39,523 bases of DNA from Methanobacteriota archaeon (GTDB taxonomy: Archaea; Thermoplasmatota; Poseidoniia; Poseidoniales; Poseidoniaceae). The stretch is from assembly GCA_018650165.1 (NCBI GenBank), contig JABIGM010000022.1, positions 1 through 39,523 on the forward strand, read 5' to 3'. Below the pieces are notes generated by a model. The model was not told the origin of the DNA. It did no database searches and saw nothing but the letters and a program-made list of their open reading frames with translations. Made by a program: the position numbers and the translations under genes. Positions 29,297 through 33,900 of the stretch are shown one piece after another. How positions within the stretch are numbered: the stretch's first letter is position 1; each line of letters starts with the position of its first letter.

Positions 29297-29467
29297 TCAC
29301 TCATTGGTTTGCGTAAAGCCACAGCGACCACAAGATTTGCGATCTGAGTGAACAGCAAGGAAAACTCCAGGGCCACATTGTGGACAGAACTCAGCCTTAC
29401 GTACTAGTGAACCATCTTCGACAGAGTACTTTGACCACTTTGCTCCAGCATTAGGACCATCGGACAT
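29297..29467 (-). CDS. rps27ae: 30S ribosomal protein S27ae (not in ORF track)
   Basis: Hand translation: [56 protein letters not shown]. [11 protein letters not shown]...CGRCG signature, TGATG overlap with S24e, GGAGGTGA RBS. Confidence 0.95.
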
Positions 29468-29838
29468 CAAGCCTCACCTCCTTTCTCTTCTTCTTCTGCA
29501 GGTGCTTCTTCAGCAGGTGCTTCTTCGGCAGGTGCTTCTTCAGCAGGCGTTGCATTGGAAGTACGCATGCCTTCATAGCGTGCAAGCATGTAATCTGGTT
29601 CAACTTTCATAGATTTTTCATCGGAATAAACAATACCAAGTCCAGTTGTTGAACCTGTTCCGAATCTTGTATTGACATTCTTAATCACTATCAAATCACG
29701 GTTAGACCCCGGTTCAATTGATGCAATGGCATTTAGCATATTTTGACGAGAGGGAGTCGCTGCACCTTCATGGTTCCAGCGGAATTCGATTTCTACGCGG
29801 TTAAGCAGTGGGTTTTCTTTACGGTCAATTATTTCCAT
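29467..29838 (-). CDS. rps24e: 30S ribosomal protein S24e with acidic repeat tail
   Basis: [30 protein letters not shown]; GGAGG RBS. Confidence 0.95.
29498..29547 (+). repeat. 15-bp tandem repeat gcaggtgcttcttc(a/g), 3 full copies plus a partial, encoding PAEEA repeats in S24e
   Basis: Units at 29498, 29513 and 29528, with a partial unit at 29543. Confidence 0.9.
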
Positions 29839-29851
29839 ATTAATTCCTCCT

Positions 29852-30055
29852 TCAACGACTATTTACTTTGAGTGCGTAGTTCCCTGGCACTTCGATTTTT
29901 AGACGACTTGCAATTTCTGAACGTGTTGGGTCCATAACTACGACATACCCGCTCCAATCAGAGGATACTGGTGCAGAAGGGTGGCGTGTACATTGGTCGA
30001 TACCATCTGCGAGAATCAAGTGACATTCGCTGCATGCAAAGGGGTTCTTAGCCAT
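29852..30055 (-). CDS. spt4: Transcription elongation factor Spt4 (RpoE'')
   Basis: ACSEC...SSDWSGYVVVMDPTRSEIASRLKIEVPGNYALKV; directly downstream of rpoE'. Confidence 0.93.
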   Translation of the reverse strand: MAKNPFACSECHLILADGIDQCTRHPSAPVSSDWSGYVVVMDPTRSEIASRLKIEVPGNYALKVNSR

Positions 30056-30071
30056 TCAAATCACTCCTAAT

Positions 30072-30623
30072 TCAGTTTTGGTCCTCGTGGATCCATTCGT
30101 GACTGCCAAGTCCGCTCTGCTTGCAAGTCAATCCGATCTTGGAGCGACGTGGGTCACTCGTATCAGGGGAAAGGGAAACAATACGTGCTCTAACTGAACT
30201 ACCTACACCCAGTTTACGACCACTTTGGCGACCTTCAAGAACACCCATGCCAGCATTGATATCAACATGGTCTTCCATAATTTGGGACTTGTGCAGAAGT
30301 GCTTCCATAGGGCCGATTCGGACGAACGCTCCGAAATCATTGACTTCGGAAACAGCTCCTTCAACAACTTCGTAATCCTCGATACAGAATAGCACCGCAT
30401 CGAAACGAACTTCTTGGTATATTGCTCCGTCACCATGAATAATTCTTCCACGACCAATTGGTTCGTGGTTTGAAGTTACAAGAACAAACTGGTTATCATC
30501 ATCAAAACGACCTTCGAAAGCAGAAGCCGCTAGGCGGTCAATGTGTTCATTCAGTGACTTATCCTTACGGATGTATTCCGCAGGGATACGAATAGTGTCC
30601 TCCTTTGTGACAACTTTGTACAT
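30072..30623 (-). CDS. rpoE1: DNA-directed RNA polymerase subunit E' (Rpo7)
   Basis: EDTIRIP, GRGRIIHGDGAIY, FGAFVRIGPMEALLHKSQI, VRARIVSLS, KIGLTCKQSGLG; GGTGA RBS. Confidence 0.96.
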   Translation of the reverse strand: MYKVVTKEDTIRIPAEYIRKDKSLNEHIDRLAASAFEGRFDDDNQFVLVTSNHEPIGRGRIIHGDGAIYQEVRFDAVLFCIEDYEVVEGAVSEVNDFGAFVRIGPMEALLHKSQIMEDHVDINAGMGVLEGRQSGRKLGVGSSVRARIVSLSPDTSDPRRSKIGLTCKQSGLGSHEWIHEDQN

Positions 30624-30635
30624 ATTTTTTCACCG

Positions 30636-30747
30636 CCTCGGGCTTCTCCATCCGAGTTACTGCAGGTAGGACGATTGAGGCTTAGTTGCCTCATCCGTCC
30701 TTCACCGGCATGTGCCTCGGGAGAGAAGTGTGACCGAAGTCATCCAC
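30636..30747 (-). ncRNA. Candidate structured 5' leader or ncRNA upstream of rpoE'
   Basis: cUUCGg hairpin (30728-30747) plus a nested irregular rod (30643-30728) found by manual pairing. No family recognised. Confidence 0.5.
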
Positions 30748-30854
30748 GCCACCATCGACCCCTATTTGAATGATACGCCCCGTAATCGAGGTCCTGTTCG
30801 CTTAACAAGCCCCGATTTTGGCTAAGAATATAAGGTCTAGATATCGCTTTCTCA

Positions 30855-30871
30855 TGGGCCCGTAGGGCCCA
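30855..30871 (+). promoter_or_regulatory. Perfect 7-bp hairpin TGGGCCC-GTA-GGGCCCA, 36 nt upstream of the 30908 gene and about 22 nt downstream of a TATA-like AATATAA
   Basis: Inverted repeat read directly from the sequence. Confidence 0.55.
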
Positions 30872-30907
30872 AAGCCATAACAACCTTGTACTACCCGATA
30901 ATTACCT

Positions 30908-33900
30908 ATGGAGCAAGTGCCGATGCGAATTCGGGCATTTCTAATGCTGTTCATTCTGCTTGCATCTACCATTGTAATTCCAACTCCAACTTCGGCTGAT
31001 GAAGAGGAGGATTCCGCATGGGACCCACTATGGCAGCCCTGGGCACAATATGGAAGAGAACCGGGGCATTCTCGTGAATTGCCCGAACATGGCGATTCAG
31101 GATTGATGACAATTGAAACTCCAGCCATTAACTGGGTAGCCTTTGATTCGGGGGATGGAGCAGATGGATATGGAGTTGCAATCGCCGACATGTCATACTC
31201 TATCGCATCACCATCTGGTGCCAAAGAAAGATGTGGAGAAAATCATCTCTTCGCTGTTTTGACCTATACGGATAACTCAGAACGACACCTTGCGATTGTT
31301 GAAGGAGACACTGCAAAAATTGCATGGGAAGTTAATCTCGGCGATACAGACATTATCCGTTCAACTCCAATAATCGTTGATGTTGACCAAGATTCTAGGC
31401 CCGAAATCGCAATTGTTTATGATACGGATAGTGCACTCAATGTAGATCTGTGGTCCCCAGATATGACTTGTGATGAATCAGGGTGGGCTGCGTCGGGCCA
31501 TTCAAACGAGAAGGTTTGGTCATGGTCTGATCCAGATTTGCGTATAGGTATCGGAACTGCTCATTTTTGGACAGGAGGATATGAGGCCGTAACTCAGCCC
31601 CTGTTAGCGGACTTGTCCCTAGATGGTAGCCCGGAATTAGTAATATCTGCTGTTGATACTTCGACAAATGATCCAACCGTGGTGGCAATTCCACTTGGAC
31701 TTCAGACACCAGAGGAAAACTGGAAAGTTGCATTAGATAGAGGAACTCACCCATCTGACCCTGCATTTGCAGCCTTGGATGATAACAGTGGAGCTGTTGT
31801 TCTGACAACTGCCGATGAGAATAGTGGTAACATTTGGATTTGGCGTATTGATGGCGCTACGGGGTCACTCGATTGGGAACGTGTATCGATTCAGGGAACT
31901 GATGATGATGATGATACACCCCGGATTAGATTACCTGGGCCTGTAATTACACAACTGGATTCTGATGCGGCACCAGAAATGATTCTGACATTGCCTGCTG
32001 ATGCGAATCAAGGAACAGATGGGATGGGGGCCCAATTTGTCGGAATGGAATTAACCAGCACAAATGAAATATGGAGATTTAGAGCGAAAAACGGCTATGC
32101 TGATGCTGAACCTCTTGCTGTAGATACAACTGGTGATGGGATTACTGACCGTGTTTGTTGGGTCACTTGGTACTCAACAGGTGCAGGGACCACTAATCGA
32201 GAAGGCCTTACCGGTTGTCATGACATTACCATCGAGCCTCCATTTAGAGAATGGACAAGAGTTTTACAAAGCGGAGGGGGAACTAACGATGGTGAAATCG
32301 CGGTCTCACCACCGATCTCAATTGATTTAGATGGTGAAGATGAACCTGAATTGCTGGTTGCCTATGGGCAGCGTATTTTCGCATTTGATGGAAATACTGG
32401 TACTTCGGCTGATATAGGTTCAGGCTGGTCTGCACCTATCGATGTCCCGCACACAACATGGGCTGCACCTGCGATAGCCGATATGGACGGAGATGGCTAT
32501 CTCGACATCCTAGTGGGTGATGCTTTGATTAGTGAAGCAAAGGCCGACATTGCACCTTTAGCAGATGGCAGGGGGATTGGTTTTACTCCAACAGACCCGG
32601 ACCCTGGAGAAATGGTCACGATTTCAGGCCAATATTCCAATATTGGTGTTGTAGATACTGATGAACCAGTTGATGCAGTCCTAATGCTAGACGGGGTTGA
32701 AATCGAGCGCCATCGAGTAAATGTTGCAGAAGCGATTTCGCCATCTGGTGAAGGAGGACCGATTACTTTTAGCGTCGATGTTGAGGCAACGCTGGGAGTG
32801 CATACTGTCGAACTATTGCTCGACATAAACGATAATTTAACTCAAACTAGAGATGATAATGACAACTATAGTACAACATTGGTAGTACTAGAGCCATATG
32901 TTGCACAAATTCAGACCCCTGTTGAAATCTCTCGGGCTTTGCCGGGAACCTCACAAATTGTTGATATCACAGTGACTAGTTTAGGAAGTAGGAATGCTGC
33001 GTGGACTCTAGATTACGATGACAGCCAATTAGAAGATGGTTGGGCGTTTTATCCAGTTAATTCTGCTGAACTTTCATTGAACCTTGTACGAGATGTTCCA
33101 CAAGTCGTACAGTTCGAATTCTCAGTCCCTCTGGATGCGATGGGTTCCGATGATGCTCAAATTCAATTAAGTCTAGTATTAGACCAAAACCAAAGCGTCT
33201 CGTCTTCGGTTACGCTACCGCTCGAAGTTGAGCGAACACGTGGGCTGTCATTACAAGGGTCCACAGGACTCCCACTCGGTATCGGATATGGGGAGCCGGG
33301 AGATGTGGCTCATGTTTGGCTACTTGTAGAAAATGTTGGCAATGCGCAAGAGACTACTGAGATGCAGTGGTCTTCAAACACATGGAGTGCGGATACAACT
33401 ATTGTAGACTATTCTGGTACAACGCAATGGGGGATTGAACTCGACCCAAGTGCTAAGGAAGAATATCTAATCGAATTTGAGATCCCTAGTTCTAAATCGC
33501 TGGGTGAGTCAACCTCTGCAACCCTAACATTGTGCATTGGTTCTGGCAATGAAGAAATTTGTGAGGATTTCACAGTGACTGTTTTTGCCAGTAATGTTTC
33601 TAGTGATATCCCACACATCAGGACAGTCCCCACATCGGGATTGACGTGGGACATCAGTTCCAACTTTGTGGGCACCACCCTTCAATGGGACATGTCTGAA
33701 GCTAGTATGCTCAAGGAAAACTGGAATTGGAGTGCAAGCGGTGACTTAAGTATCAATGGAACCATGCTAGAGATGTCTGGCCAAGAGGGGCAATTACACC
33801 TCGATTTACCGTTGAATGCTCCTCCTATGCGCCATTATTTCAACCAAAGTGAAGAGAATTTAGTATTTTCAGACTTCTCAATCTCATTACACATCTTGCA

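Follow-up and report, generated by a model that had tools for sequence, protein, structure and literature searches.

What does the RNA leader in front of the rpoE'-spt4-rps24e-rps27ae operon do, and does it adopt one structure or two? The question arises in a 39,523-nt stretch of DNA (the window), where a 284-nt spacer (30624-30907) separates two divergent genes and contains the leader. The plus-strand gene, from 30908, encodes an 1848-aa surface protein; the minus-strand operon and the parts of its leader are listed in Table 1. The matches to Rfam in the window, the 3' end of 23S rRNA, 5S rRNA and tRNAs, are those of archaeal DNA. An earlier, sequence-only reading had described the leader as highly structured and potentially two-state, and had recognised no known family in it. 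Rfam 15 agrees on the last point: at gathering scores over the window, and at E <= 10 on 30500-31000, no relevant match was obtained. SRP RNA, RNase P RNA and a tRNA-like element were considered and rejected, as neither matches nor signature motifs were found.

Table 1. Coordinates of the operon and of the elements of its leader (positions in the window).
Feature	Position	Strand	Remarks
Operon rpoE'-spt4-rps24e-rps27ae	29297..30623	(-)	Pfam S1 + SHS2_Rpb7-N, Spt4, Ribosomal_S24e, Ribosomal_S27
rpoE'	30072-30623	(-)	Pfam S1 + SHS2_Rpb7-N
spt4	29852-30055	(-)	Pfam Spt4
rps24e	29467-29838	(-)	Pfam Ribosomal_S24e
rps27ae	29297-29470	(-)	Pfam Ribosomal_S27
TATA-like box TTCAAATA, putative operon promoter	30763..30770	(-)	fits YTT[A/C]WATA
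G-rich block GGGGTCGATGGTGGC, between box and predicted TSS	30748..30762	(-)	genus-conserved, recognisable in other families
Mini-hairpin UGAC[UUCG]GUCA	30731..30742	(-)	at or near predicted mRNA 5' end
Kink-turn non-bulged strand, NC-helix part CUUCUCUCCC	30719..30728	(-)	positions 12n-3n; also 5' strand of rod P1
G2n A1n of tandem G.A pairs, presumably sheared	30717..30718	(-)	GA in 77/77 distinct sequences
C helix GGC/GCC with variable loop ACAU	30707..30716	(-)	3 bp next to bulge
Three-nucleotide bulge GGU, L1-L3	30704..30706	(-)	L3 = U in 77/77
Bulged strand: G1b A2b, then A-GGAC-GGAUG (NC helix)	30692..30703	(-)	also 5' strand of rod P3
Upper P3 hairpin UGAGGC[AACUAA]GCCUCA	30676..30693	(-)	fits both folds; 89% of cells paired (helix 2)
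Variable 3' 'anti-kink-turn' strand	30643..30675	(-)	3' strands of lower P3, P2 and P1
Shine-Dalgarno GGUGA	30630..30634	(-)	6 nt before ATG at 30623

Folding of the minus strand with RNAfold yielded -68.7 kcal/mol over 186 nt (z = -3.21, none of 200 shuffles being as stable), which bears out the description as highly structured, and the entire 284-nt spacer gave a folding z of -5.41. Both the MFE and the centroid structure are a nested rod that extends over 30643-30728 (fold A). Its helices are present as they had been drawn: P1 pairs CUUCUC-UC-CCGAG (30716-30728) with CUCGG-AUG-GAGAAG (30643-30656), P2 pairs UGCCGGU (30704-30710) with ACCUGCA (30661-30667), and the tip is formed by GGACG-GA-UGAGGC[AACUAA]GCCUCA-AU-CGUCC (30669-30700). 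The pairing of the hairpin GUG-GA-UGAC[UUCG]GUCA-CAC (30728-30747) is present as well. The rod is the MFE structure in nearly all of the 59 orthologous leaders analysed. Within the genus, 77% of the cells of the rod are paired, compared with 36-50% when the partners are slid, and 12 pairs have changed on both sides (4-8 when slid; 0/500 shuffles), with P1 and P2 covarying at this level. Covariation among orthologous leaders, the lack of which would have spoken against the earlier proposal, is thus observed. In the genus alignment the rod's 5' strand hardly varies, unlike its 3' strand, whose sequence is not conserved and which shifts register between genera. The rod is predicted to leave the Shine-Dalgarno (SD) sequence largely free.

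For the comparison with relatives, in which all genomes were MAGs, rpoE' upstream regions comprising 59 leaders from three families were examined, as were 77 distinct sequences. A degenerate pattern search of genome contigs was swamped by chance matches in GC-rich bacteria, and a covariance model of the conserved 5' block (R1) was used instead. R1 detected a single site per genome in 76/77 genomes of family f1 and in 48/49 of family f3, and no site in the 24 genomes of sister families. The element is therefore a conserved, single-copy leader of an RNAP/r-protein operon, as had been supposed, found in 124/126 sampled genomes of the order. All three families of the order have the 5' block, the R1 sites that were inspected all lie upstream of rpoE', and the position of the leader before the rpoE' SD is fixed across all genomes examined. 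In the genome of the window R1 scored 59.1 bits at 30690-30732 and 17.9 bits at the next best position; no second site is present in this assembly, which is 80% complete. A second R1 match in genome G098 was not accepted as a member, having a 36-nt insertion and no GGC stem. Because rpoE' in the sister order begins ~21 nt after its TATA box and is essentially leaderless, with no structured leader (L218-L221), the leader is, as judged from these sequences, an innovation of the order Marine Group II/Poseidoniales. The gene just upstream of rpoE' in the sister order looks like that of a membrane pyrophosphatase, going by its last translated residues as read by eye.

The order-wide invariant bases all lie in the 5' half of the leader. 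The sequence of this core bears the signature of a standard kink-turn hairpin (Lilley nomenclature): across the 59 leaders, which come from three families, each invariant base falls on a standard kink-turn position, with the exception of one C.C mismatch. The putative hairpin (fold B) comprises 37 nt (30692-30728), all of which belong to the rod's 5' strand. With the leaders anchored on the invariant bases, the consensus reads YYCUC(C/U)-N-GA-GG(C)-[2-5 nt]-(G)CC-RRU-GA-N-GGAC-GG, and its features agree with the kink-turn definition and folding rules summarised in PMC6298567. The tandem pairs G1b.A1n and A2b.G2n can be formed in 59/59 leaders and in 77/77 distinct sequences, the bulged strand carrying GA and GGA in 77/77 each. 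The bulge is always 3 nt long (77/77) and is RRU in most sequences, with a pyrimidine at L1 in 7/77 and with GAU in most of family f3; the pair 3b.3n, in standard kink-turns usually not of the Watson-Crick type, is non-Watson-Crick in 52/59 leaders.

The three pairs of the C helix occur in 59/59, 59/59 and 53/59 leaders. Among the 77 distinct sequences, -1b:-1n, usually C:G in standard kink-turns, is C:G in 76 (the exception is U:G) and the second pair is retained in 76, and the third pair covaries (CG, UG, UA, AU, GC); the loop of 2-5 nt is hypervariable. The C helix has only 2-3 bp, so that the element comes near to a K-loop in genus g13, of which one genome has GGG/CCC, a compensating change that keeps the motif. 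On the other side of the bulge, 30719-30728 pairs with 30692-30701. Pairs 4-6 of this NC helix are found in 58-59 of the 59 leaders, and pairs 8 (GU 36, GC 19, AU 4), 9 (GC 43, GU 15, AU 1) and 10 (AU 44, GC 15) in all of them; in the distinct sequences, positions 4-6 and 8-10 are paired in 76-77/77, with covariation at 8, 9 and 10. Compensating changes in a g12 genome yield A-U at pair 8 and U-A at pair 12; this genome and the g13 one are among the most divergent members. Position 7b.7n (30697 and 30723) is the conserved C.C mismatch, present in 70/77 distinct sequences; the rod gives each of the two C's a Watson-Crick partner.

In alignment A2, 93.9% of the cells of the kink-turn pairs are paired, compared with 42-63% when the partners are slid. 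The covariation score was 0.296 (<=0.163 when slid; 0/500 shuffles as high), much of this covariation being the split between families f1 and f3 and hence few independent events. Pairing and covariation hold likewise for the 77 distinct sequences aligned to the model. Within the genus the kink-turn is invariant and therefore carries no covariation information. RNAalifold on a mixed-family MAFFT alignment, in which the variable 3' half is misaligned, was uninformative. A kink-turn placed within the rod instead, P2 serving as its C helix and P3 as its NC helix, was rejected since the 3' strand offers no GA.

Taken by itself, the kink-turn hairpin is no more stable than its shuffles (z = 0.06), and the exact kink-turn register is the MFE structure in only 13/59 isolated hairpins. 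According to Huang, Ashraf & Lilley 2019 (PMC6298567), operator kink-turns are expected to be unfolded until protein binds, and the low stability fits this expectation for a protein-dependent operator. The same low stability can also be taken to favour a leader that functions through the extended hairpin alone, as a 5' stabiliser or as a site for S24e, S27ae or the S1 domain of RpoE', and in which the kink-turn-like arrangement of bases is coincidental. The great stability of the rod, its prevalence as MFE, its covariation within the genus and the RNA-binding proteins encoded by the operon agree with such a leader. We consider it unlikely all the same: a rod-binding protein should be expected to constrain both strands, whereas the invariant bases lack conserved rod partners and the 3' strand varies and changes register between genera. 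Furthermore, ~20 invariant bases lie exactly on kink-turn positions, the covariation of the NC helix is confined to the 5' half, and R1 finds no rRNA look-alike in the 80% complete assembly.

In 58/59 leaders of the three families an A/T-rich 8-mer, YTT[A/C]WATA, precedes the invariant GA by 37-44 nt, and the kink-turn hairpin sits between this TATA-like box and the SD in 58/59. We infer promoter function for the box at 30763-30770, which with the usual archaeal spacing predicts transcription to start near 30738-30741. The predicted start of ~30741 is upstream of the rod; the earlier proposal had named a start downstream of ~30660 as the finding that would contradict it. Were this box the promoter, the transcript would include no more of the first hairpin than its core GAC[UUCG]GUC; GAC-UNCG-GUC is retained in family f1. 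At the other end of the leader, GAGGTGA/GGAGG precedes the ATG and is conserved in all leaders aligned. Upstream ORFs, namely a 47-aa ORF (30551-30694) and a 13-codon ORF from AUGACU, were discarded, as their AUGs are not conserved and the loop indels are not multiples of three.

The G-rich block that separates the box from the predicted start (30748-30762) is possibly an operator or promoter element. At the rpoE' promoter it reads GGGGTCG..GGTGGC directly after the TATA box; at the l7ae promoter a G-rich block, GAGGTCGTGCGC, likewise follows the TATA box directly (L182:1410-1422), and rpoE' of the sister order carries TTTATAGA-GGGGGC after its TATA box. The block may represent a promoter-proximal element, or an operator, that these promoters have in common.

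Kink-turn and rod draw on the same bases. Because the pyrimidine tract and GGACGG pair either with each other in the kink-turn or with the 3' strand of the rod, the alignments suggest two mutually exclusive, conserved folds. The two-state character proposed in the sequence-only reading is thereby supported, in that the kink-turn (30692-30728) competes with the rod and both covary, but the switch it had envisaged was a different one. CUCGG was to choose between two copies of CCCGAGGC, which do occur on the minus strand (30714-30721 and 30635-30642); the downstream copy turned out to be lineage-specific, being found in 7/59 leaders, and this mechanism was abandoned.

The two halves of the leader are matched to each other. 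Pairing of the 3' strand with the kink-turn part amounted to -17.6 kcal/mol for a leader's own strand, -10.5 kcal/mol for that of a foreign genus and -5.3 kcal/mol for shuffled strands, the own strand being better than the foreign one in 56/58 comparisons. When halves were swapped between genera, own 5' and 3' halves fitted better than chimeras in every case (ddE = -18.6 kcal/mol, 100% negative), and swaps within the genus gave ddE = -8.3 kcal/mol (87% negative); for P2 or P3 alone, the own-versus-foreign duplex test was not significant. The rod lies 4.5-25 kcal/mol below the best fold-B structure, so that capture of the kink-turn would have to be co-transcriptional or very tight. Upon enforcing fold B in silico, mean pairing of the SD window rose from 0.49 to 0.65 over the 59 leaders, with an increase of more than 0.2 in 21/59 and a decrease in one. 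In leaders such as L004, the freed pyrimidine-rich 3' strand of P3 forms a long helix with the 3' strand of P1 and the SD. These folds weakly suggest that the captured nascent hairpin represses translation. As the SD is about 57-60 nt away from the kink-turn, such an output needs an indirect refolding step, for which the in silico support is modest.

We consider it fairly probable that the rpoE' leader contains a protein-operated kink-turn switch whose ligand is a protein of the L7Ae family, most likely L7Ae. The rpoE'-spt4-rps24e-rps27ae mRNA would then begin with a 5' leader of ~120 nt that acts as a conformational switch around the kink-turn. Fold B would arise in the initial ~40 nt of the predicted transcript: CUUCUCUCC and GGACGGA would form the NC helix, next to tandem G.A/A.G pairs, an RRU bulge of 3 nt and a C helix of 3 bp (GGC/GCC) with a small loop. 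An L7Ae-family protein would bind and kink this nascent hairpin and lock it in fold B. The 3' strand, thus left free, would re-pair with the ribosome-binding region, and translation would be lowered. Without the protein the weak hairpin would give way, and the lineage-specific 3' strand would pair with both hairpin strands to form the rod of fold A. The transcription start, the identity of the protein (L7Ae or L30e) and the direction and level of the regulation are given here as we infer them.

Two genes of the L7Ae family (PF01248) are present in the genome. The first is l7ae itself, in the row prs-l7ae-rps28e-rpl24e-ndk; the second is L30e-like, encodes 99 aa (L183:1477-1776, contig C16) and directly follows the gene for Rpb1 domain 5 (rpoA''), the classical location of L30e in archaeal RNAP operons. 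On account of this location, L30e could be the ligand of the kink-turn switch and couple synthesis of the stalk subunit and Spt4 to the core polymerase operon. Yeast L30 autoregulates through a kink-turn in its own transcript; we know of no archaeal L30e-mRNA regulation. We regard L30e as quite an unlikely ligand, since the rpoE' hairpin resembles l7ae operators in its bulge (GAU/GGU) and architecture, and since L7Ae is the general kink-turn binder of archaea and has been shown to regulate mRNAs (PMC5539422).

L7Ae remains the favoured ligand, and its own gene has a canonical kink-turn operator hairpin in this lineage (L182:1439-1463, contig C20), conserved in 30 relatives with covariation of the C helix. 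Its sequence is GCAU-GA-GAG-[UGAU]-UUC-AAU-GA-GUGC in the genus and ACAU-GA-GGA-[GAGAA]-UCC-AAU-GA-GUGU in family f3. L2, L3 and G1b of the kink-turn together spell the AUG with which l7ae begins; this is the published autoregulatory design (PMC5539422, PMC6298567). The l7ae and rpoE' hairpins have the same layout, i.e. an NC strand, GA, a 3-bp C helix with its loop, an RRU/AAU bulge, GA and the second NC strand. By analogy, Marine Group II appears to use L7Ae/kink-turn control, and the rpoE' leader therefore looks like a second operator. A generic kink-turn-hairpin descriptor gave 11 matches in the genome and 2-9 in shuffled sequences, and therefore cannot define the L7Ae regulon.

Like the published l7ae operators (Daume et al. 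2017, PMC5539422; PMC6298567), the rpoE' leader has a short stem-loop, here in a predicted 5' UTR, with a GAU/GGU-type bulge and tandem G.A/A.G pairs. A C helix bearing the terminal loop is shared with three of the six, and a low intrinsic stability without protein is predicted in silico for the rpoE' hairpin. The differences are equally clear. The rpoE' hairpin would control a heterologous operon (stalk subunit E', Spt4, S24e, S27ae) instead of l7ae, and its -1b:-1n pair is C:G, which occurs in none of the six published operators. Its NC helix is long (about 9 positions) and includes a C.C mismatch, and a covarying anti-kink-turn strand converts it into a rod. Whereas the published operators overlap or adjoin the ribosome-binding site, the SD at 30630-30634 is neither within nor next to the kink-turn at 30692-30728. 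The rpoE' element thus probably works through protein-RNA recognition of the l7ae-operator type, without overlap with the ribosome-binding site.

A precedent for L7Ae acting on other mRNAs comes from Sulfolobus acidocaldarius, in which RIP-seq revealed its binding to, and repression of, saci_1468, saci_2027 and saci_1347 (PMC5539422). These sites are C/D-box-like Kt-b/Kt-n motifs of species-level distribution in unrelated genes, none of them for RNAP or Spt4, with no competing structure described; that paper contains neither 'rpoE' nor 'Spt4' nor 'S24e'. Four archaeal r-leader candidates, for L4, eL15 and S15 (twice), were reported by Eckert & Weinberg 2020 (PMC7247131), and none of the four precedes rpoE' or rps24e. 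With autogenous r-protein leaders in general, the rpoE' leader shares its conserved structure, its place before an operon with r-protein genes and, probably, a feedback logic based on an RNA-binding ribosomal protein. The earlier reading had mentioned such leaders and riboswitches as typical cases of exclusive pairing, and a logic of the r-protein type is plausible here. An L7Ae-family protein, whose gene is located elsewhere, is the likely ligand rather than S24e, S27ae or Spt4; the leader would therefore be an instance of trans-regulation, not of autoregulation. A metabolite riboswitch appears unlikely from the conservation pattern, because the kink-turn explains all invariant bases bar the C.C mismatch and no other conserved pocket is present; apart from the SD, the P1 and P2 3' strands contain no invariant base, and there is no Rfam match.

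Binding of L7Ae need not imply a switch. The protein could stabilise or mark the mRNA as a constitutive kink-turn RNP, the rod being an alternative in silico only. The hairpin lies no more than ~10 nt from the predicted mRNA 5' end, and many RNAs bound by L7Ae are not regulated by it (PMC5539422), both of which would suit such a role; the 3' strand, however, is selected to match the kink-turn strands of its own lineage, which is hard to explain if no rod forms and makes a constitutive complex improbable.

The hairpin also shares 5' CNGA, 3' RUGANGG and U at L3 with the archaeal box C'/D' K-loop or kink-turn. It differs from box C/D sRNAs in having neither a terminal C/D pair nor free 12-nt guides, in that its flanks pair with each other, and in being part of an mRNA leader; no RUGAUGA (box C) or CUGA (box D) was present at the ends with the spacing of ~12-nt guides, and the box C/D assignment was rejected. 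That the element is a separate small RNA of this kind or a DNA-level regulatory site, as the D-box-like CNGA, the C-box-like RUGANGG and the conserved G-rich block after the TATA box might suggest, is very improbable, since terminal boxes at guide spacing are missing, the 'guide' lies in a covarying helix, no terminator-like site was found, the leader sequences show no evident oligo-T tract past the hairpin, the position before the rpoE' SD is fixed in all genomes examined, and the compensatory changes speak for RNA rather than DNA.

Archaeal cis-regulatory RNAs are known in 'a handful' of cases (Eckert & Weinberg, PMC7247131). If the kink-turn reading holds, regulation of the L7Ae type extends from the self-control of l7ae to the transcription apparatus, and the leader would be a natural protein-triggered two-state RNA in which selection acts on the operator hairpin as well as on a covarying masking strand. 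We propose only tentatively that it is an order-wide kink-turn/anti-kink-turn riboregulator through which the pool of free L7Ae (or L30e) controls stalk subunit E', Spt4 and two small-subunit r-proteins. A general kink-turn binder would in that case be a trans-acting global regulator that ties the assembly of ribosomes and RNPs to the archaeal transcription machinery, by means of a kinetic switch between operator hairpin and rod instead of simple occlusion of the ribosome-binding site.

Finally, a perfect palindromic hairpin, GGGCCC-TAC-GGGCCC, is located at 30856-30870, between the rpoE' promoter and the divergent gene for the 1848-aa protein. Members of the genus share it; a single compensatory variant reads AGGCTC-ACT-GAGCC, and the loop is TAC in some species and flipped to GTA in others. 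Family f3 has CAGACC-TAC-GGTCTG at a comparable position.
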